Origin: a candidate division FCPU426 bacterium
GTDB taxonomy: Bacteria > Oederibacteriota > PGYV01 > Palsa-1178
Assembly: GCA_963840035.1 (NCBI GenBank)
Contig: CAWIXE010000003.1
Location: 256,001 to 320,000 of the forward strand
DNA length: 64,000 nucleotides
Direction: 5' to 3'
Under the pieces are notes generated by a model. The model had not been told where the DNA came from, ran no database searches, and saw nothing but the letters and a program-made list of their open reading frames with translations. The position numbers and the translations under genes are program-made. Position 1 is the first letter of the stretch. Each line of letters opens with the position of its first letter. Below, piece by piece: positions 19,915 through 63,485 of this stretch.

Positions 19915-21906
19915 TTGTCCAGGAAAAAGCCAGCGGCAAAACCGGCGGCAACTGACGGCGCCGGCTTCTTAAAAAAAATCATTATCCCCGCGGCGCTTGC
20001 CGAGCTCACGTTCCTCTTTATTATTTTCTCAGAAAACATCCTTCCGGCTCTTTACGCCGTTGCGTCCGGCGGCCTCCTGTTCTATTCGCTCTCATGGGCC
20101 GCCCTCGTGTGCATATTGTACATGCTCACTGAATCCATCAAAAACGGCAGGGCTCTGTTGATGTTTCTGGTTGTAACAGCCGCGGCAATTATTTTTTTTT
20201 ACATGAACTTCTGGTACAGGATGTGCCTCAGCGCTTTTTACATCCTGTTGATAGCTTTTTTATACCGCGGCACGGCAATTTTGCTGCCGGGAAAAACAAT
20301 ATTTACCGACGTGAATGGGTTTTATTTTAAAGCGGCTTCGGCAATGCTCGGGACCATACTTTTCTTTTCCATCATACGCAATGGCTGGGTCTCTGATGAC
20401 GCGTACATAACCCTGCGTACGGTCGATAATTTTGTGAACGGATACGGGCCCAGATGGAATGTCTTTGAAAGGGTGCAGGCATATACGCATCCCCTGTGGA
20501 TGCTGCTAGTGTCATGTTTTTACTTTTTTGCCAGGGACGCTTTTTATACGGTAATTGCCGTGTCCGTAGCCGCCGCCGCCGGCGCGATAGCGTTATACGC
20601 CTTCCAGTTCCGGAAAAAACCGCCGATGCTTTTTGCCGGTCTTATCATGATGTTCCTTTCCGAGGCGTTTATCGAGTTTTCCACTTCAGGGCTTGAAAAC
20701 CCGCTGACCTATCTTTTCATAGCGCTGTTTTTTTTAGTCTCCGCCGGAAAAAAAAGCGCGGGGGTAAAAAAGGTGTTCCTGCTCTCATTGATATCGGGTT
20801 TGGCAGCTTTTAACAGGATGGACACGCTGCTGCTTCTCGCGCCGGCGCTTGTGTATCAGGCCCTTGCGGTAAAAAAACCGGGCGTAATTAAGGCTGTGCT
20901 CGCGGGTTTTACGCCGTTTTTTATCTGGGAATTGTTCTCTGTTGTATATTACGGATTTCCTTTCCCGAACACCTATTATGCCAAGGTGGTGGATACAGGC
21001 TGGAGTGTGTTGTTTACCGCGTTCAAGGGATTTAAATATTTATTGAACCTTGCGGAAATGCAACCCGTAACTCTTTTTGTCATTGCCTCCGGGATAATCG
21101 CGGGGCTGCTGTCATATAAAAAAAACAGGCCGCTTTTTTTCCTTTCATTGGGCCCGCTGCTTTACACGCTTTATGTCGTGATAATCGGCGGCGACTTCAT
21201 GGCTGGCAGGTTCTTCGCGGCGCCTTTTTTCATGATGGTCTTTGTAATATCATATTATGAATTTGACCCTAAAAAACCGGAATATGTCTCATTCTTCGCG
21301 CTCATTTTCCTCTTTGCGGTCATATCGCCTTATACGCCGATAACAGGCGGCGCTTTTTTTAAATGGGGGGTCAGGGACAGCAACAACGTGGCGTATGAAA
21401 AATCTTTCTACATATATTGCTCAGGCCTTGCCGCGGGGACCGCCGATAAATACGGGACTCCGGTGCCGTACTGCGAATGGGCCATTGACGGCAGGAATTT
21501 CAGGATTGCAATAGAAAAGGGCAGGGACAGGGTTTATGTAACTAATAATACGGGGTACGTCGGCTATTTCGCCGGTCCTAAGGCATATATTATAGACAGG
21601 CTGGCTTTAACTGACGCGTTCTTATCCAGGATCAGGCCGGTCAGCGGCAGCGTAGGGCACTTGAGCAGGGCCCTGCCGGGAGGGTATGTCCAGACACTAC
21701 GCACAGGCAGCAACATGATAGAGACACCGGAGCTTAAGGAGTTTTATGACAGGCTGTGCGTTGTGACAAAAGGGCCGATTTTTTCAGCAGAGAGGTTCAG
21801 GGAAATATTTAATTTCAATACGGGAAAATACAGGAAGCTTGCCTCGCCAAAGACAATATTCATAGACACCACTTTCGAAGAGCAGGATAAAGGGGTTTTT
21901 GAGTAG
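19915..21906 (+). CDS. GT-C-type membrane glycosyltransferase (AftB-like)
   Basis: Multi-TM; WVSDDAYITLRTVDN...ERVQAYTHPLW, SGLENPL, PNTYYAK and GGDFMAGRF motifs. Confidence 0.8.
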   Translation: MSRKKPAAKPAATDGAGFLKKIIIPAALAELTFLFIIFSENILPALYAVASGGLLFYSLSWAALVCILYMLTESIKNGRALLMFLVVTAAAIIFFYMNFWYRMCLSAFYILLIAFLYRGTAILLPGKTIFTDVNGFYFKAASAMLGTILFFSIIRNGWVSDDAYITLRTVDNFVNGYGPRWNVFERVQAYTHPLWMLLVSCFYFFARDAFYTVIAVSVAAAAGAIALYAFQFRKKPPMLFAGLIMMFLSEAFIEFSTSGLENPLTYLFIALFFLVSAGKKSAGVKKVFLLSLISGLAAFNRMDTLLLLAPALVYQALAVKKPGVIKAVLAGFTPFFIWELFSVVYYGFPFPNTYYAKVVDTGWSVLFTAFKGFKYLLNLAEMQPVTLFVIASGIIAGLLSYKKNRPLFFLSLGPLLYTLYVVIIGGDFMAGRFFAAPFFMMVFVISYYEFDPKKPEYVSFFALIFLFAVISPYTPITGGAFFKWGVRDSNNVAYEKSFYIYCSGLAAGTADKYGTPVPYCEWAIDGRNFRIAIEKGRDRVYVTNNTGYVGYFAGPKAYIIDRLALTDAFLSRIRPVSGSVGHLSRALPGGYVQTLRTGSNMIETPELKEFYDRLCVVTKGPIFSAERFREIFNFNTGKYRKLASPKTIFIDTTFEEQDKGVFE

Positions 21907-21935
21907 GTGATTTACTATTTGTAAGCAGGTGTCTG

Positions 21936-21959
21936 GCAGCCGCAACCTTCAGGTTGCGA
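21936..21959 (+). repeat. GGYAGCCGCAACCTTCAGGTTGCG palindromic repeat (solo)
   Basis: Same unit at 46246, 51433 and 54808. Confidence 0.75.
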
Positions 21960-21988
21960 AAGGCGGCATTAATATTAATAAAAATAAT

Positions 21989-23087
21989 AAAAAGGTGTCA
22001 GGTCCTGATTCGTGATTCTATTTTATTGACAAAATAAAATTAGTAAATATAATAACAGTACAAGGACTTCAAATAATTAGTGAGGGCTAATTATGGGACG
22101 ACCATTACGCATGTTTTTATCCGGGTATTCATATCATGTGATAGCCCGGGGAAATGAAAGAAAAAATATTTACAGGGATGATATAGACCGGAAGAAATTC
22201 CTGAAAATAATGAAAGAAGCTGAAAAGGAGTTCCAATTCACGGTTTTATCATATGTTTTAATGAGTAATCACTATCACTTCCTAATTGAAATAAAACTAC
22301 CAAATCTATCCACTATAATGCATTTTGTGAATTTATCATATAGCCGGTATTTTAATAGTAAATACAAGCGGAGTGGGCATTTGCTCCAGGGGCGGTTTGA
22401 GGCGATACTGGTCGAACATGGTCAGGATTTGCTATATGTTTCGGCATATATCCACTTAAACCCTGCCAGAGCAGGCATGGTAGAGCAAGTTATAGACTAC
22501 CCGTGGAGTAGTTACAGGCAGTTTACCGGAGGGTTTGACAGCGGCATAGCAGTTCCGGAGATAATCCTGCAGATACTCTCGGAAGATAGAATGGAAGCTG
22601 TAATGAAATATGAAGAGTATGTAAAAACAACAGCTATGGAAAGCCCGGATAAGGCCAAAAAGCGGGTATATGGCGAGTATATTATGGGAAGCGAGAGTTT
22701 TGTAAGAGATATAAAACTTCTTTTAAAAGGTAGAAAGATGTCTAGAAGCATCGCCGGACGGAAGAAACTCAGAAAGATTTATGGGGAAGTAAATGTAACG
22801 GAAGCTGTTAAAAAGTACTATGATTCTGGCGATGAAATATTATATAATAAAAGCAGGTGGGATAAACAAAAGTGCATTCTGATGTTCCTACTAAAACGAG
22901 ACGCGGGTATGACATATGCAGCAATAGCCAGAAAGTTTGGGGACAGGGATTCAAGCGGTGTTGGTAGGATGTGTAAGAAAATTGTGGATGAGTGCGCACT
23001 TGGAGGGAGGATTGAAAAGGAAATAAGGGCGATAGAAAAAGCATATGTTAAAAAATAGAATCATGAATCAGGACCTGACACCTTTTT
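21989..23087 (+). mobile_element. Y1/HUH transposase unit bounded by 36-bp terminal inverted repeats
   Basis: AAAAAGGTGTCAGGTCCTGATTCGTGATTCTATTTT (21989-22024) and its reverse complement (23052-23087, 1 mismatch); the right end abuts a 5'-truncated gene. Confidence 0.8.
22093..23058 (+). CDS. Y1 (HUH) transposase / RAYT-like with C-terminal DnaA-C-like HTH
   Basis: YHVIARGN, YVLMSNHYHFL (HUH), GHLLQGRF, YIHLNP (catalytic Tyr) and YPWSS; AT-rich. Confidence 0.9.
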   Translation: MGRPLRMFLSGYSYHVIARGNERKNIYRDDIDRKKFLKIMKEAEKEFQFTVLSYVLMSNHYHFLIEIKLPNLSTIMHFVNLSYSRYFNSKYKRSGHLLQGRFEAILVEHGQDLLYVSAYIHLNPARAGMVEQVIDYPWSSYRQFTGGFDSGIAVPEIILQILSEDRMEAVMKYEEYVKTTAMESPDKAKKRVYGEYIMGSESFVRDIKLLLKGRKMSRSIAGRKKLRKIYGEVNVTEAVKKYYDSGDEILYNKSRWDKQKCILMFLLKRDAGMTYAAIARKFGDRDSSGVGRMCKKIVDECALGGRIEKEIRAIEKAYVKK

Positions 23088-23088
23088 T

Positions 23089-23316
23089 ACTGTTAAAGTT
23101 CCCGGCTGGGAGATCTGGCTGCCTTTTGGAATTCAAATTACCTCTCACATTTTAACAGCGTTTTTTTGGGGACCATGGCAATATAAACTTTCAACAGATA
23201 AATCGGGTGGGAAGAGCGTTTATCTTGCCAAAATATTAAAAACGCACTGGATTAGAACAGCATTATGGAATGCTTGCGGATTAATGTTCTTATTTATAAC
23301 AATTCAAATATTATGA
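23089..23316 (+). pseudogene. 3' fragment of a small membrane-protein gene truncated by the transposase IR
   Basis: Open frame TVKVPGWEIWLPFGIQITSHILTAFFWGPWQYKL...KILKTHWIRTALWNACGLMFLFITIQIL* with no start codon; its TGA overlaps the next ATG (ATGA at 23313-23316). Confidence 0.65.
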
Positions 23317-23825
23317 TCATGAAAACAAATGTTATTTTATTCTTATTTCTATCGGTTACATCCGTTTCTTTTGCTGCAGGCGCAGTTACCACAACAGCTT
23401 ACGCTGAGCAGAATCTTTTTCCTTATATCACAGTTCAATCTCTTGATGATAGACAAGTATCCTTGCCTTATGAAGTGACTTCCACCGGTAAAATTTCACT
23501 GGTAACCATTGCTTTTTCCAAGCCTGATGACAATGACATATCTTCTTGGGTAAAACCGTTTATAGATAACTTTGAAGGGAACAGCAAAACCACTTATTTT
23601 GAAATAGCTTTAGTCGGTGATATAGGCATATTGAACGGACTAATTTTTAATAATATGCGAGGAGGCGCTTCTGATGACAAAAAGAAACACGTACTGGTGT
23701 ATTTTAAAGATAAAGATGTTTATAAACGTTTGTTGAACATAACTGACGATTCACTAATATATATTTACCTTCTCGACAAACACGGTCTAATAAAACTTAT
23801 TAAATCCGGAAAAAAAGCATCATAA
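23313..23825 (+). CDS. Secreted thioredoxin-fold/ATP10-like protein, possibly prematurely terminated
   Basis: Signal peptide; FP...QSLDDRQVSLP, IAF...SWVKPF and YIYLLDKHG; frame stays open 17 codons past TAA 23823 to TAA 23877. Confidence 0.6.
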   Translation: MIMKTNVILFLFLSVTSVSFAAGAVTTTAYAEQNLFPYITVQSLDDRQVSLPYEVTSTGKISLVTIAFSKPDDNDISSWVKPFIDNFEGNSKTTYFEIALVGDIGILNGLIFNNMRGGASDDKKKHVLVYFKDKDVYKRLLNITDDSLIYIYLLDKHGLIKLIKSGKKAS

Positions 23826-23925
23826 AAGGATACTGAAGATATAAACAATGTTGCGCAAGCCCTCTTGATTCTCCAATAAAAAACATCAGTTAGTATGATA
23901 TATATTACCGGACTCCTGCCGTGAA

Positions 23926-23997
23926 TCTAATTTCGTATAAAATACTTTGTGCGCAATTACATAAATCCAGTTTCGTTAAATATTCATTATATTTATA
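23926..23997 (+). other. Left pair of 11-6-11 dif/lox-like recombination sites
   Basis: ATTTCGTATAA-AATACT-TTGTGCGCAAT (23930-23957) and GTTTCGTTAAA-TATTCA-TTATATTTATA (23970-23997). Confidence 0.6.
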
Positions 23998-24081
23998 GCA
24001 GCAATAAACTTTGACAAAATTTATAATTAGGCATATCCTAATAATCAAAGTTACCAAATACATGGAGGAAAAACATATAAA

Positions 24082-25371
24082 ATGACAAATATTATTAAAA
24101 CAATCTCATCTTCCGGCGCCGTACAAGGCGTCATTATCGGCGCCGTGCTGGGCTGGTACACGCTCGGAATTATCGCAAACATAAAGGCCGCCAAAGTCAA
24201 TGGCTGGATCACCATTTTCGGATGGGGCGTACCCGGCAATGGCATGGTGCTGCGGGCCGCGTGCGTTAAGATATTTCCCGGCCCGGTAAACGTGCCGAAG
24301 GAGGCGATGTACTGGACGACTACCAAAGACGGTGCGGGCAACAAACTCAACGGCAAATACGACTACATCATGCACTTTCCGGCAGGGCAGCTTCCGCCGA
24401 ACAATGCATTCTGGTCGTTAACGATGGGTGATGCCAAACAACGCTTTGTGCCAAACCCCCTCAATCGATACAGCGTCGGGGACAGGTCGGGCCTTGTGCC
24501 TAACGCCGACGGTTCCACCGACATATATATCCGGCACACGGCTCCGGCCGGCCGCGAATCAAATTGGCTGCCTTCTCCAAAGGGTTATTTTATACCCTGG
24601 CTGCGGGTCTACGAGCCTGGCGAGGCAATTCTTAACGGCAAATACCAGTTGCCGCCTATCGTCAGAGTACAGGCACAAGGCGCCACCGGCCGCCAAGGCG
24701 CAATACCGGAATATATATACACCAATCCATATGCGTCCGCCATGGCGGCGCTCTTCGCATGGGTCATCTACCAACACTTATCCACGGGGATCATGCCGCT
24801 CGCCGTGGCGGCCGCCATAGTATGGCCGACAGCCGCATTCCTGTTCATCTACTTTTGGCCGCGGCTCCTCTTAAACGTGTACAAAAAAGCGGCTCTAGTT
24901 AAGGGATTCGGAGACGGTCCTATTCCAATCAATACGCTCTATACACAGCCCCAGGCTCTCTTTGCGGACCCGCTCCATGCAACGCTGTCGCCGGGAAGCT
25001 CGCCATTAATGAGCATGGGCACGAACCGTGACACCTTATATGTGGTCGGCTGTCTTGACCTCTCCAAAGGGCCTCAAATCCTGCATGTGCCGGACATGGC
25101 CGGCCGCTACTACAGTGTGCAGTTTACCGACCCATCAGACAGCACTAACTTTGCCTACGTCGGCAAACGCGTCACAGGAACCAAAACCGGCGACTATCTC
25201 ATTACCGGCCCGCGCTGGAAAGGGACCATGCCGCAGGGAATGAATCAGATATCATCGCCAAATAATTCGGCGCTTGTTATCGGACGGGTGTTCGTGGAAA
25301 ATGACAGTGACCTTTCGACTGCCTATAACCTTTCAAAACAGATACAGCTCACGCCATTAAACAGGAATTAA
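24082..25371 (+). CDS. DUF1214 + DUF1254 membrane-anchored fusion protein
   Basis: DUF1214-like (PPNNAFWSLTM, NADGSTDIYI, NWLPSP) followed by TM segments and DUF1254-like (NRDTLY...LDLSKGP...VPDMAGRYYSVQ, GDYLITGPRW); GC-richer than its flanks. Confidence 0.8.
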   Translation: MTNIIKTISSSGAVQGVIIGAVLGWYTLGIIANIKAAKVNGWITIFGWGVPGNGMVLRAACVKIFPGPVNVPKEAMYWTTTKDGAGNKLNGKYDYIMHFPAGQLPPNNAFWSLTMGDAKQRFVPNPLNRYSVGDRSGLVPNADGSTDIYIRHTAPAGRESNWLPSPKGYFIPWLRVYEPGEAILNGKYQLPPIVRVQAQGATGRQGAIPEYIYTNPYASAMAALFAWVIYQHLSTGIMPLAVAAAIVWPTAAFLFIYFWPRLLLNVYKKAALVKGFGDGPIPINTLYTQPQALFADPLHATLSPGSSPLMSMGTNRDTLYVVGCLDLSKGPQILHVPDMAGRYYSVQFTDPSDSTNFAYVGKRVTGTKTGDYLITGPRWKGTMPQGMNQISSPNNSALVIGRVFVENDSDLSTAYNLSKQIQLTPLNRN

Positions 25372-25503
25372 CCATTATTTTTAGACGGCCGGCAAGTATA
25401 GATATAAAATATCCCGATTAAAAGGCATATTATTGGCAATGGCAGGAAATACTGATTTTAGCGATATGAATTAAATACTTTAAATCTTCATCAAACATCG
25501 AGT

Positions 25504-25577
25504 TCTAATTTTGTATAAAATACTTTGTGCGAAATTACTGTTTTTTAAAGTTTCGTATAATATAAATTATACGAAAT
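25504..25577 (+). other. Right pair of 11-6-11 dif/lox-like recombination sites
   Basis: ATTTTGTATAA-AATACT-TTGTGCGAAAT (25508-25535) and near-perfect palindrome GTTTCGTATAA-TATAAA-TTATACGAAAT (25550-25577); 25504-25538 is a 33/35 direct repeat of 23926-23960. Confidence 0.65.
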
Positions 25578-25657
25578 CATTCCCAACCCAAACACTTGAC
25601 AACCGTAAAAAACAACTATATAATAATGATAATACACATATAAAGGGAGGTACTTCC

Positions 25658-27343
25658 ATGAAAAGAAACATGCTGATTCTTACCGTAATGCTTGTACTCT
25701 CATCAATTTCCATGGCGAATTATTTAACTGATATTTCCGCGGTTGCCGCGGGCGCTTATCCGCGCGGTATTACGGCGGCGGATGTTAACGGCGACGGCAT
25801 TAAGGAAGTGGCTGTGGCTAATTTCGGCACTGAGACTTTAATCGGCCAGGACACGGCAAAAGAACCTGATTCCTCAATTTCCATATTTACTAAGTCCGGT
25901 AACGGGTCGTTTTCTGAACAAAAGATAAAAGCGGGCAAGTCACCCAGGGGTTTAGACGCGGCTGATTTTAACAATGACGGCAAAGATGAACTTATCGTAT
26001 CAAACTATGATGATGGCACTGTCATGATACTTTTAGGAGAAAGCACGGTAACTCTTCAGGCAGGAAGGCACCCGGTTGGCGTTGCGTCCGGAGACCTGGA
26101 TAATGACGGCAAAAAAGACATTGCAGTGGCCGTATATTCCGACAATAAGGTCGTAGTATTCTTAAATGACGGCATGTGGACCAAGAAGGAAATAACGCTT
26201 ATTGGTTCGCCCACTGACGTGGCCATCGGAAAGATCGGCAGGGGCAGCGCGATTGTCTCCGCCAATTATACGACGGGCGACTTAAGCGTAATAAGACTCG
26301 ACGCGTCAGGGCTTGTAAAGACTCAGGATTTAAAGGCCGGCGGCGGGCCGTGCAAGGTTGAAGTCGCGGATGTGACAGGCGACGGCGAAGCCGACATTGT
26401 GGCCTCAAACTTTTATGATTCCACGATTACCGTTATCGGCGTTGACGCGGGCGGGAATTTTAAGGACGCTGTTGCTTATCCTGTGGGCGGCAGGATGCCA
26501 AACGGCATGGCAGTGGCAGATGTTACAGGCGACAAATTAAACGATGTCATTACTGCAAACAGGGATGACGATACCATAAGCGTCCTTGTGCAAAAGGACG
26601 GAATACTTCTGGCACCGTATACAATCCAGGTTACAAAAGACGACGTAAAAACATACGGCCCGGTAGAGGTAATAGGGGCTGATATAAACGCGGACGGGTT
26701 AAACGACGTGGCTTTCACGCATATGAGGAGCAATACGCTTCGCGTTATGTACCAGCAGTTCCCGAAAGCGCCGGCGATAACCTCGGCAACCCATCCTGAC
26801 CAGAGCGCGTGGTATACTGAGGATAAGGCAGCGCTGTCATTAAGCACCGTTGACTTATCAGGCGTGGCTGGCTATTACTGGCTGGTGACAACGGATGAAA
26901 AGTACTTCGACATCAAAAAAGCGGCTTTCACGGAAACCGCCGATGTAAAAATATCCTTAAGCGACGCGGGTGTGAATTACTTTAAGGCTGTCACAAAGGA
27001 CATAAACGGCAATATCAGCGCGGTTCCCGCGGTATATAAGATAAACATTACCGAGGAAATGAGCGAGAAGAACACTTACAATTACCCGAACCCGTGCAGC
27101 GGCCCGACTACCATCAGGTTCGCGCTGGCAAAACAGAAGGAAGTAAAAATACTTATAACTGATATCAAGGACATTCCGGTATGGCACAGGGACCTCTCCG
27201 CGGCGGAAGTAATAGCCGGGGTGAATTCGATAACATGGAACCTTTTAAATGACGCGGGGAAAAGGGTGAATAACGGCGTTTATATCTTTAAGGTTATTAC
27301 AGCTGAAAAAACAGTTTCAAAGAAGATTGTAGTTATTAAATAA
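25658..27343 (+). CDS. FG-GAP/VCBS beta-propeller protein with T9SS-like C-terminal domain
   Basis: Repeated DxNxDGxxD motifs; NYPNP...NGVYIFKV...KKIVVIK; GGGAGG RBS before ATG 25658. Confidence 0.88.
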   Translation: MKRNMLILTVMLVLSSISMANYLTDISAVAAGAYPRGITAADVNGDGIKEVAVANFGTETLIGQDTAKEPDSSISIFTKSGNGSFSEQKIKAGKSPRGLDAADFNNDGKDELIVSNYDDGTVMILLGESTVTLQAGRHPVGVASGDLDNDGKKDIAVAVYSDNKVVVFLNDGMWTKKEITLIGSPTDVAIGKIGRGSAIVSANYTTGDLSVIRLDASGLVKTQDLKAGGGPCKVEVADVTGDGEADIVASNFYDSTITVIGVDAGGNFKDAVAYPVGGRMPNGMAVADVTGDKLNDVITANRDDDTISVLVQKDGILLAPYTIQVTKDDVKTYGPVEVIGADINADGLNDVAFTHMRSNTLRVMYQQFPKAPAITSATHPDQSAWYTEDKAALSLSTVDLSGVAGYYWLVTTDEKYFDIKKAAFTETADVKISLSDAGVNYFKAVTKDINGNISAVPAVYKINITEEMSEKNTYNYPNPCSGPTTIRFALAKQKEVKILITDIKDIPVWHRDLSAAEVIAGVNSITWNLLNDAGKRVNNGVYIFKVITAEKTVSKKIVVIK

Positions 27344-31960: not shown

Positions 31961-32865
31961 AATGAAAAAAGAGGATATGGACAGGACGCTTCAGGCCCTG
32001 CTTTTTACTTCTGATAAACCGGTGCCGGCTTCAGTGCTGGCCGGCGTGCTTGAATCAGGGGCCAAAGAAATACAGGAAACAGTAGAGCGGGTGAATGCCC
32101 ATCTGCGCGATACCGGCTCGCCGGTGATGATAAAGGAAATCGCGGGAGGTTATGAATTTTTAACCCTTCCCGAGTTCGCGCCTTACATTAAAAAACTTTA
32201 CAAGAACCGGTACTTAACCAGGCTGTCCAGGGCAGCCCTTGAAGTGCTCGCCATAATCGCTTACAAACAGCCAATCACCAAGCAGGAAGTGGAATCCATC
32301 AGGGGCGTAAACTCCGACGGCGTTTATCATACCCTGCTTGAAAGAAAACTGGTAAGGATAGCCGGAAGAAAGGAAGCTCCGGGCAGGCCGCTGCTATACG
32401 GCACGACCAAGGAGTTCCTGCAGTACCTTGGCATAAATTCAATGGAAGACCTCCCGAAGATAGAGGAGATTAAATCCATACTCGAAAAGGATGAATTTAC
32501 CGAAAGCTGGGAAGACAGGATAGAGACGGCTAAGAACCAGACCGTCTTTGAATTCAATCAGGAGCAGGGACAGCAGGCGCCTGCCGCCCGCGTGACCAGC
32601 CTGGAAGAGGATTTAACCGCGCTTCAAAATGAACCTAAGGAAGAAACCGCAGGCAGCCCCGGAACAAGGGGAAGCAAAAGGTGAAGATACGGAAGATGAC
32701 GAAGAAGATGATGAACTGAAAAAAACCGCTGAAGATGAAGACGGGTCAAAAGACGATGAAGATGACGACGAAGATGAGGATGATGAAGACGACGAGGACG
32801 AGGACGAAGAGGACGACGAAGAGGAAGATGAGGACGAAGAAGAAGAGGATGAAAATGAAAAATAA
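31953..32865 (+). CDS. scpB: Segregation and condensation protein B; acidic C-terminal tail frameshifted at about 32645
   Basis: LSRAALEVLAIIAYKQPIT, IRGVNS and GRPLLYGTTKEFL. The main frame stops at 32684; the poly-D/E tail is in the next frame and ends at 32865, overlapping the rluB start. Confidence 0.88.
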
Positions 32866-34069
32866 CAACAGGACACACAGCGCGAACCGCAAGTGGGGGG
32901 AAGCGCGTGTAAATGACCGCAAAGCCAGGGAAACAAAAGGGGAGGACAAGCCCCGGGGCGAATGGCATAAAAAAGATGACGCGCGTCAGGGCGCCAAACC
33001 CGCTTGGGGAAATAAAGGCGGGAAACCCGCGGGAAAGCACGGGCAAAAACCTTACGGCACAAAATCCAAATTCGGGGATAAGGCATTTAAGTATTCACCG
33101 CGGAGTTCCAATGCCGAAGCGGGATACCCGTCCGTTAAAAAAGATGAACCGGGGGCAGGTTCCAAATGGCAAAAGCATCAGCCGGTAAAAAAATCAAATT
33201 ACAGGCCGAAGCCTGAACATATAAAAACTTCGCCGATCCCGAAATGGGCCGGCAGCGACCGTAAGCTCGATATCCCCAACCTCCCGAAGGGTATTGACCC
33301 GGATTTTAGTACGGACAACCTGGAAAACCCTGCGGGAATGAAACTCCAGCAGTACATCGCCCACGCCGGCATAGCCTCCAGGAGGAAAGCTGAAGACTAC
33401 ATACGCCAGGGCAGGATAACCGTAAACGGGATAACAATCACAGACGTGACGGCGAGGGTGAATGAAAAGTCCGACCATGTGAAGGTTGACGGGCACCTCG
33501 TAAAGACGGAAAAAAAGGTTTATATAGTGATGAATAAGCCCGAGGGCGTCATTACATCCGTAACAGACGACAAGGGAAGGCAGACTGTAGTGGACCTGCT
33601 CGCGGATAAGATAAAACAGCGCATATACCCGGTGGGAAGGCTTGACTTTAACACCACTGGCGCGCTTATCCTGACAAATGACGGAAATTTCGCGAACCTT
33701 ATAATGCACCCGAAGTTTGAAATACCAAAGAGGTACGTGGCAAAAATAAAGGGCAGGATCGCGCCATACGCTATAAACAGGCTGAAGAAAGGGCTCAAGA
33801 TTGTAAATGAGGATGAGACCGAAGGCAGGTTCATACAGGCGTCGGACGCGGGTATATATAAGAGAAACGACGCGAACGACCTCGTGTATATAACCATAAA
33901 GGAAGGCATAAACCACCAGGTCAAAAGGATGCTTGAAGCCGTAGGCGCCTCGGTCATACGCTTAAAAAGGGAAAACATCGGGCCTGTCACATGCAGCAGG
34001 ATGGAGCCGGGACAGTGGCGCTATATGATGGAAAGCGAGATAAATTATTTTTACAGGGGGAAAAAATGA
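32855..34069 (+). CDS. rluB: 23S rRNA pseudouridine synthase (RluB/RsuA family) with basic N-terminal extension
   Basis: S4 domain (KLQQYIAHAGIASRRKAE), PVGRLDFNTTG and EGINHQVKRM; follows scpB. Confidence 0.85.
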   Translation: MKNNNRTHSANRKWGEARVNDRKARETKGEDKPRGEWHKKDDARQGAKPAWGNKGGKPAGKHGQKPYGTKSKFGDKAFKYSPRSSNAEAGYPSVKKDEPGAGSKWQKHQPVKKSNYRPKPEHIKTSPIPKWAGSDRKLDIPNLPKGIDPDFSTDNLENPAGMKLQQYIAHAGIASRRKAEDYIRQGRITVNGITITDVTARVNEKSDHVKVDGHLVKTEKKVYIVMNKPEGVITSVTDDKGRQTVVDLLADKIKQRIYPVGRLDFNTTGALILTNDGNFANLIMHPKFEIPKRYVAKIKGRIAPYAINRLKKGLKIVNEDETEGRFIQASDAGIYKRNDANDLVYITIKEGINHQVKRMLEAVGASVIRLKRENIGPVTCSRMEPGQWRYMMESEINYFYRGKK

Positions 34070-62266: not shown

Positions 62267-63485
62267 ATTGTCAACGCAGATTTGGTGCCTGACACCAAAA
62301 CTGCGTTGACAATGGACAAATATAATACTTGAAAAAAATTGTGCAATTCTGTAATATATCGCAAATAAAACAAATAGAGGGGTTTTATGGGGCGATCGCA
62401 CAGGATTATTTTTCCGGGGGCCATATACCATGTGTATGACCGCGGAAATGAAAAAATGAGGATATTTAAAGACGACCTTGAAAGAAAGGCTTTCCTTCAG
62501 TTTTTAAGAACGGTTAAAGAAAGGTATAAATTCAAGCTGCACGCATACGCCCTCATGCCGAATCATTATCACTTCCTCATGGAACCGGACGAAATTCCGC
62601 TATCAAAAATAATGCAGGTATTTAAGACAAAATACAGTCATTATTTTAATTTTAGGAATAACAGGGTGGGACATCTTTTTGAGGGAAGGTATAAGGCAAA
62701 ACTTGTGGAGAATAATGAGTACCTCGAGCAGGCGCTTTGTTACATACACTTAAATCCGGTGAAAAGCAGACTTGTAGAATCCATTGACGATTATACATGG
62801 AGCAGTCATGCGGAGGTGATAGGGGCGTCAAAAGAGGGCATATCCGATATTGAACTTTTGATAGAAATGTTTGGCTCAGATAAAAAAGCGGCCATTAAGG
62901 AATACAGGAGGCACATCGGGCATGCCTGGAAAACTAAAACTAAGCTGCCATATGAGGAATGGTTTGACAAACTCATTGCGGGCAGCAAAGAGTTTGCCGG
63001 GGAAGTACTGCATAAGGCGCAGAAAGCAGGTCTGAAAGTGTCTGTGCAAGCTTTCCGCGGGAACTGGGCAGGACAGGATGACATAATAAACCGCGTATGT
63101 GAAGGGTTTGAGGTCGGCAGGGAAGAGATGATAACCAAGAAAGGCAAATGGAATACGGCGAAGTTGGCGGCTATCTATCTGTTTTGGAAAAACACAGCGT
63201 TTACGCAAGCGCAGATAGCACTCGTATTTAACAATCTGCACCCGACCGGCGTAAAAAGGGCGGTTGATTCTGCAAGGGAAAAGATGCTTGATAATAGTGA
63301 GTTCAGGGCCCTGGTTGAGGCGGTAGAAAATAGACTGACCAGGAAAAGCAATAAAAGCAGCGCATTCGGTCCGAGCAATAATTAAAAGACATCCAATCCA
63401 CCCCGGGATATAATTAAAAGTTTGAATTTTTACAATGTTTTCTCAACGCAGATTTGGTGCCTGACACCAAATCTGCGTTGAGAAA
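62267..63485 (+). mobile_element. Y1/HUH transposase unit flanked by two directly repeated 21-bp-stem hairpins
   Basis: TCAACGCAGATTTGGTG-CCTGA-CACCAAA[A/T]CTGCGTTGA at 62267-62313 and 63439-63485. Confidence 0.8.
62387..63385 (+). CDS. Y1 (HUH) transposase / RAYT-like with C-terminal DnaA-C-like HTH
   Basis: YHVYDRGN, YALMPNHYHFL, GHLFEGRY, YIHLNP and YTWSS; C-terminal AIYL...TQAQIALVF...HPTGV. Confidence 0.9.
   Translation: MGRSHRIIFPGAIYHVYDRGNEKMRIFKDDLERKAFLQFLRTVKERYKFKLHAYALMPNHYHFLMEPDEIPLSKIMQVFKTKYSHYFNFRNNRVGHLFEGRYKAKLVENNEYLEQALCYIHLNPVKSRLVESIDDYTWSSHAEVIGASKEGISDIELLIEMFGSDKKAAIKEYRRHIGHAWKTKTKLPYEEWFDKLIAGSKEFAGEVLHKAQKAGLKVSVQAFRGNWAGQDDIINRVCEGFEVGREEMITKKGKWNTAKLAAIYLFWKNTAFTQAQIALVFNNLHPTGVKRAVDSAREKMLDNSEFRALVEAVENRLTRKSNKSSAFGPSNN

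Follow-up and report, generated by a model that had tools for sequence, protein, structure and literature searches.

Introduction

Integrons and the dif modules of Acinetobacter are the best-known cases of targeted gene-module exchange in bacteria. Integrons operate with an IntI integrase on attI and attC sites. XerS/difSL and XerA are single-recombinase systems with a symmetric type of site, which in the case of XerS adjoins the gene of its own enzyme, and the loxP site of Cre is built as 13-8-13 with a spacer of 8 bp. The dif modules, which occur on Acinetobacter plasmids and chromosomes, depend on XerC and XerD; their pdif sites are arranged in an inverted C/D-D/C order and have many different spacers (PMC13141974, PMC12907356). 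Replacement of a module by two crossovers via a cointegrate has been proposed for them (PMC13141974). In addition, mobile elements have repeatedly repurposed simple Xer-like recombinases (PMC8138268).

Here we analyze a locus from genome G000 (3.46 Mb), which lies in a stretch of 64,000 nucleotides (G000:C3:256001-320000) called the window below, together with the family of putative recombination sites to which it belongs. The family resembles the Acinetobacter dif modules in the way it probably works; it is not one of them on account of the XerD arm and of site orientation, and it is not an integron. The 28-bp sites with an 11-6-11 structure, an arm sequence identical to listed pdif XerC arms, and a cargo of toxin-antitoxin and other accessory genes are all shared with pdif modules (PMC13141974, PMC12907356); a need for like spacers, empty modules and an exchange via a cointegrate with two site pairs, all inferred here, would be further likenesses. 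Unlike pdif sites, the sites of this family have no XerD arm, and their polarity is set by the spacer; neighbouring sites are mostly direct and fall into two fixed spacer classes, and a dedicated recombinase gene adjoins them. With TnpI and its irs site in Tn4430 (PMC7157771), the family shares a single tyrosine recombinase, a site which is just upstream of and colinear with its gene, a promoter at the site and extra putative binding motifs near the core. In contrast to Tn4430, there are many dispersed sites, two classes of full dyads flank single genes, and no transposase was seen colinear with the recombinase in these loci.

The core geometry is like that of XerCD/dif, XerS/difSL, XerA and Cre/loxP, with the symmetric type of site found in single-enzyme systems; conservation favours a spacer of 6 bp over the 8 bp of loxP. 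As in integrons, the site is mostly located just after a co-oriented gene and a recombinase gene adjoins a site. The sites differ from those of integrons in that they are simple double-stranded 28-bp dyads, seemingly with no folded repeat of the attC type; furthermore, the cargo has a predicted promoter of its own and the recombinase scores far below the cut-off for IntI.

Results

A single gene between paired putative recombination sites

The window contains a direct repeat of 35 bp, the copies of which (23926-23960 and 25504-25538) agree in 33 of 35 bases and are 1578 bp apart. Comparable repeat pairs occur four times in the real 64-kb window and not at all in three shuffled windows. The left copy holds the site L1 (23930-23957) and the right copy the site R1 (25508-25535); both are 11-6-11 dyads with the spacer AATACT, and in each core the arms are symmetric at 8 of 11 positions. 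A first-pass annotation of the same DNA had described this repeat and its two similar cores, and our analysis confirms it. Sites with this spacer are referred to as A sites. The annotation also placed a second 11-6-11 site after each repeat. This is correct for the right side, where an intact B site, R2 (25550-25577; spacer TATAAA), follows R1 at a distance of 42 bp and is symmetric at 10 of 11 positions. On the left side the claim does not stand in this form: B1 (23970-23997; spacer TATTCA), 40 bp after L1, is symmetric at 4 of 11 positions, falls below the threshold of our matrix and can at best be regarded as a decayed B site, placed at the usual distance of 40 bp. A further decayed B-type site absent from the annotation, B0 (23888-23915; spacer TATATA), precedes the first A site by 42 bp, in a B-linker-A layout which recurs in relatives. 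The order of sites in the window is hence decayed B, A, decayed B, gene, A, B. All of them, like the genes and predicted promoters described below, are on the forward strand.

The gene enclosed by the A sites (24082-25371) codes for a protein of 429 aa with the domains DUF1214 and DUF1254. As had been noted earlier, it is GC-richer (54% G+C) and has its own TTGACA box and ribosome binding site; the predicted sigma-70-like promoter (24011-24039; TTGACA-17-TATCCT) is a consensus match only, and GGAGG is found at 24064-24068. The right flank is host DNA with an FG-GAP repeat gene (25658-27343), which is conserved in the order, and its predicted, conserved promoter (25596-25624; TTGACA-17-TATAAT). 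Promoter-like DNA resembling the FG-GAP promoter of the relatives begins just past R2, and R2 is likely the right edge of the acquired DNA. On the left side a gene for 168 aa (23319-23825; 34% G+C) ends 62 bp before B0. It is a possible upstream module; no family site was found upstream of it, and its 14 homolog loci are without family sites. Next to it are 36-bp inverted repeats (21989-23087, forward strand) enclosing a gene for a Y1 (IS200-like) transposase (22093-23058), with a 5'-truncated reading frame (23092-23316) abutting this element. The Y1 element probably obscures the left edge of the region. Its transposase has a DnaA-like helix-turn-helix, and a REP-like repeat at 21934 adjoins the element.

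No copy of the DUF1214-DUF1254 gene was detected when 23 further genomes from the order were searched, and its homologs in two other genomes of the phylum have no family sites beside them. The regions upstream of 23 other FG-GAP orthologs contain no site, and for this reason there is no clean empty allele of the cassette. Such an allele was also sought in the relatives compared, following a suggestion in the annotation; neither an empty allele nor a second copy was found there. A search of plasmids with the cassette DNA returned short matches to the DUF gene only, and an Rfam scan of 21500-26000 gave no match. No 1578-bp circle was seen either; the one sequencing run available was uninformative, as it contained 7% of the words, in scattered short pieces with no joint and with zero cover over the sites. 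Elsewhere in the window there are a 45-bp palindromic pair (62268-62312 and 63440-63484, 1172 bp apart), a 15-bp tandem repeat (659-808) and an acidic low-complexity stretch (32735-34069), the frames of which overlap the start of a pseudouridine-synthase-like ORF.

Sites and recombinases in the host genome

The chromosomal dif of G000 is located at C2:776496-776523, at the peak of the skew, while the window is on contig C3, which is G-rich throughout. We rejected the idea that the sites themselves are chromosomal dif sites, given that dif is single and at the terminus on another contig, whereas the family is multi-copy and patchy. When G000 was scanned with a matrix trained on the relatives, L1, R1, R2 and dif were the sole high-scoring sites. 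The reversed genome gave 3 hits against 4 real ones at the same threshold, so the scan shows the absence of sites more than it proves significance. The genome-wide search proposed at the outset yielded further copies in relatives and, in G000 itself, the three window sites besides dif.

G000 encodes an intact XerC and an intact XerD plus a third, frameshifted Xer gene, which is located in a stretch of about 70% G+C at the start of C3. This stretch (G000:C3:1-20000, outside the window) comprises about 20 kb on a contig of 47% G+C and is possibly a chimeric join or foreign DNA. No integrase of the IntI family was found among the PF00589 matches of G000.

The annotation had left room for an origin of the sites as Tn3-type res sites of a serine resolvase. 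Up to three dyads do occur in a row, and R2 may resemble Tn3 res site I. On the other hand, the only resolvase-domain match in G000 is in a 523-aa frame on contig C1, no resolvase family was detected among 181 scanned proteins, nearly all of them from beside family sites, and the enzyme which does neighbour the sites is a tyrosine recombinase. We consider a serine-resolvase origin extremely improbable.

Distribution of the site family

A pattern search was conducted in 99 genomes of the phylum, i.e. G000, 7 genomes of the same family, 16 others of the same order and 75 others. It matched 18 genomes: G000, 5 of the 7, 5 of the 16 and 7 of the 75; the reversed pattern as a control produced 2 hits in the 99 genomes. 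Six of the 7 matches outside the order represent a different dyad, one of the 5 in the order (G021) is probably due to chance, and that in G025 looks like chance. With a looser pattern, single genomes had as many as about ten distinct places. A search of 185,579 species genomes with the A pattern gave 11 loci, 10 of them on the same contigs as the order relatives, and metagenomes provided 31 loci. A match in Lachnospiraceae (L173) was dropped since it has one good arm only and is inside coding DNA; L190 and L211, each with a single good arm within coding DNA, were dropped as well. Viral contigs contained the A pattern in 3 loci, none with a full dyad and none with the recombinase.

The searches also uncovered dyads of other kinds. 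Viral contigs (L091-L146) carry symmetric XerC-arm dyads with varied spacers, and a tyrosine recombinase gene is near 14 of the 56, in ten cases within about 170 bp. One of these contigs (L132) has two XerC-arm dyads, inverted, 655 bp apart and with the same spacer, a possible inversion switch. In family f17 of the same phylum (L032, L033 and L037, at about position 1501) the start codon of a gene for about 345 aa overlaps with a different symmetric dyad, the 6-bp spacer of which varies; two of these three genes were scanned, and both encode Xer-like recombinases below all cut-offs. In G005 an A site is 5.6 kb from the chromosomal dif (L070:2613 and 8242).

Anatomy of the sites

After removal of 10 duplicate or non-family loci we analyzed 78 sites in 55 loci. 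The loci are kin and some redundancy is left (L193/L206), so that the following counts overstate independence. By their spacers 40 sites belong to class A (AATACT), a number inflated because the searches of species genomes and metagenomes required the A spacer, 29 belong to class B (TATAAA or TATACA) and 9 are other. The sites are intergenic in 72 of 78 cases, although ORFs cover 78% of the DNA. The spacer is co-oriented with the upstream gene in 43 of 51 cases and with the downstream gene in 36 of 52.

Neighbouring typed sites are direct in 15 of 17 pairs and of unlike type in 14 of 17, with like types in the remaining 3 of 17; six short direct A-B pairs have a distance of 40-42 bp. The B sites are full dyads with conserved spacers and often stand alone. 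Single genes or gene pairs have a B site before and an A site after them in L067 and L198, and the reverse in L074, so other cargo between sites, for which the annotation had proposed to search, does exist. The cargo beside sites includes YefM-YoeB, nucleotidyltransferase-HEPN pairs, Fic, ArsR, TetR, MarR, methyltransferases, restriction-modification genes and DUF4238. These data modify the earlier idea of the second site as an accessory or alternative crossover site: it is a second spacer class, often on its own and alternating with the first. They also bear on the proposal of an integron-like system unlike classical pdif modules. The sites are indeed not XerC/D pdif sites, but the frequent solitary B sites and their alternation with A make the layout more similar to dif modules than to integrons.

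The assignment of arms to XerC and XerD is based in part on the dif consensus and in part on the pdif table in PMC13141974. The arms of L1, R1 and R2 match the XerC arm of the host dif at 8-9 of 11 positions and the XerD arm at 6-7 of 11. Two diagnostic positions were compared across the 142 arms of 71 distinct site contexts: CG is found in 126 arms, TG in 10 and AA in one; the host XerD arm has AA there, and the sole AA arm of the set belongs to a dif site. Both arms are therefore of the XerC type and, with no XerD arm, the sites are not pdif sites. The base beside the 6-bp centre is A in 94% of arms, a conservation which favours 11-6-11 over 13-8-13. In both the A and the B spacers, reverse complementation changes just two positions. 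Palindromic hybrid spacers are present at L071:118, at 23888 in the window and in L069 upstream of 661, hinting at an occasional antiparallel crossover.

Exchange of flanks at the sites in relatives

Ten pairs of loci share one flank only. Alignments of at least 84% identity and 120 bp have 35 internal ends. Nine of these fall no more than 10 bp from a site in each of the two partners, a proximity that applies to 0.87% of the DNA; the other 26 are away from sites, and 3 of the 9 at sites come from one trio. In one example the same left flank and the same A site are followed by the recombinase gene (L206), a TauE gene (L208) or an NHL gene (L069/L203). In another, L213 has a 1.24-kb Fic gene between a FlgD-domain gene and A-yefM-yoeB, and L064 has 57 unrelated bases instead. 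The right breakpoint of the Fic gene is the A site; the left one coincides with only a decayed half-site in L213, and in L064 it is separated from the A site by 55 bp. The relatives thus contain accessory modules that are exchanged with breakpoints at the sites.

Crossover at B sites is suggested by the sequence comparisons as well, with weaker evidence than for A. L078 and L230 differ by the inversion of 0.73 kb of DNA that has a B site at one end and no intact site at the other, and L197 and L209 diverge at the end of a B site, a breakpoint that an insertion sequence may explain. Some cases are irregular: one flank joins the A spacer in either orientation (L076/L194), and one flank joins A or B (L082/L220).

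The multi-copy family, the other cargo and the exchange of flanks agree with the earlier view of these sequences as symmetric sites of a tyrosine recombinase. The annotation had named a transcription-factor operator, duplicated together with a promoter, as a finding that would overturn this view. Such an operator would fit the position of both site pairs in the window, just upstream of a TTGACA box, and the frequent co-orientation of the downstream gene counted above. It would not fit the conserved asymmetric spacers, the exchange of flanks, the unrelated neighbours, the adjacency of a recombinase gene or the 23 other FG-GAP upstream regions without a site. On this evidence an operator is very improbable.

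A candidate recombinase beside the sites

Of 29 metagenomic loci selected by the DNA motif alone, six have a gene for a tyrosine recombinase of about 285 aa beside the A site; two of the six share one allele. In five of the six the gene follows the site, with a predicted -35 box a few bases past the right arm; in L186 it converges on the site. The arrangement with a site upstream of a colinear recombinase gene, not present in the window, was observed in L188, L193, L196, L206 and L210 and in the genomes G005 and G010. A protein search detected a full-length recombinase in 3 of 24 genomes (G007, G005, G010); a truncated one is present in G006. In G005 and G010, where the enzyme was found by its protein, a site or half-site is again upstream. 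The recombinase was not found in 6 of 10 site-bearing genomes (G000, G002, G003, G009, G014, G015). The single-protein recombinase postulated in the annotation has in this way found one candidate, in the relatives.

The family of this recombinase has 39 database members at E <= 1e-30. It passes no NCBIfam cut-off; the best score is to the XerA-like model (163.5 against a cut-off of 220), and the score to IntI (TIGR02249) is 91.9 bits against 265. The catalytic R-H-R-H-Y columns are kept. In a quick tree with 20 XerC and 3 XerD sequences the recombinases form a separate group with an SH-aLRT support of 100. Best matches in plasmids are under 30% identical, and no relative was found in viral contigs. 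A leader ORF of 65 aa between site and recombinase is conserved in several loci (L188:1926-2123) and absent in others; its Atlas scores of 0.81-0.82 are at chance level. In L149/L219 (G010:C8) the recombinase gene is immediately followed by a CRISPR-like repeat array.

The enzyme acting on the sites could instead be the host XerC, alone or with an XerD that tolerates a C-type arm; the sites would then be a symmetric pdif variant and the mobile recombinase a mere passenger. The match of the three intact sites to the XerC arm of the host dif is consistent with this, as is the B spacer TATACA, the reverse complement of which is the host dif spacer. Sites furthermore occur in genomes in which the mobile recombinase was not found, and xerC and xerD are intact in G000. 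Against it, XerC is present in nearly all genomes of the order while the sites are patchy, and the mobile recombinase is repeatedly found behind a site. Moreover, the helix before its HxLRH motif, which presumably reads the site arm, matches the XerC of G000 at 38% of 14 positions as against 19% for XerD; a XerC-like helix in the mobile enzyme explains XerC-type arms without the host XerC. No relevant account of recombination by XerC alone at a pair of XerC arms came up in a literature search. The family has no XerD arm at all, whereas pdif sites have one arm of each kind (PMC13141974). We regard action by the host XerC as unlikely.

Tn3 ends and plasmid-type genes near the sites

Tn3-type ends are present in 9 of 69 loci. 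L062 contains a 355-bp mini-element with Tn3-type ends and a B site inside, and in L196 a Tn3 end is joined to a truncated recombinase. In L191 and L198 the Tn3 ends interrupt the leader ORF of the recombinase, so there the site lies outside the transposon. In L230 the neighbours of the recombinase include Rep-like and RadC genes, and NikA is encoded in L199. Neither a Tn3 end nor a Tn3 transposase is present in G000; a fragment of such a transposase was found in 1 of 24 genomes.

Tn3-type ends and IS21-like genes are also seen near the sites or in the leader ORF at L191:224, L198:1472, L197:1139 and L210:83-1679, and by analogy it is possible that insertion elements target the sites. IS1202 is reported to target pdif sites.

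These associations raise the question of whether the recombinase serves Tn3-family elements or small plasmids as a resolvase like TnpI. The A site would then be the core and the B dyads some 42 bp away would be accessory subsites; a gene enclosed by two A sites would be a by-product of res-to-res recombination and not of an exchange between two addresses. The position of the site, directly upstream of a colinear recombinase gene and abutting its promoter, is like that of irs and tnpI in Tn4430 (PMC7157771). The fixed A-B spacing of 40-43 bp points in the same direction, as do the Tn3-type ends with the mini-element in L062 and the joint in L196, and the plasmid-type genes in L230 and L199. However, the B sites are full dyads which often stand alone and which, together with an A site on the other side, delimit single genes (L067, L074, L198), whereas in irs the accessory motifs form direct repeats and each transposon has a single irs (PMC7157771). 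The site is outside the transposon in L191 and L198, Tn3 parts are absent from G000, and the Tn3 transposase fragment was confined to 1 of 24 genomes. We think a TnpI-like resolvase doubtful as an explanation, but it is the strongest of the alternatives.

Discussion

The changes of flanks at the sites, together with a dedicated Xer-like recombinase gene beside sites in the relatives, make a gene-swapping system likely. We consider it probable that this is an exchange system similar to dif modules and run by one mobile recombinase, with the DUF1214-DUF1254 gene of the window as an orphaned passenger. In the mechanism that we propose, the mobile Xer-like enzyme would bind both arms as a homomer, and only like spacers would recombine, A with A and B with B. 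An incoming circle or plasmid would be joined to a resident site by one crossover; a second one at the other class would resolve the joint and thereby replace the module lying between a B and an A site, in either order. The A-B pairs with a distance of 40-42 bp would be empty modules. The simplest history of the window would be that a circle of 1578 bp integrated by an A x A crossover into a B-A-B site and is now orphaned. Activity in G000 today would require an incoming recombinase or the host XerC.

A more general reading, which we put forward tentatively, is that of a natural cassette exchange. One mobile Xer-derived enzyme with XerC-like specificity might use two non-interchangeable symmetric sites as left and right addresses and so swap single-gene modules, its own gene among them, between plasmids, transposons and many chromosomal spots, without XerD or attC sites of the integron type. 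A literature search, in which most subscription papers were outside the coverage, found no description of such a system. One protein of 285 aa with two 28-bp sites could possibly be made into a compact tool for cassette exchange. If the reading is true, the shuffling of modules can be freed from XerCD and spread over a chromosome, and this would explain the turnover of accessory genes in an uncultured lineage.
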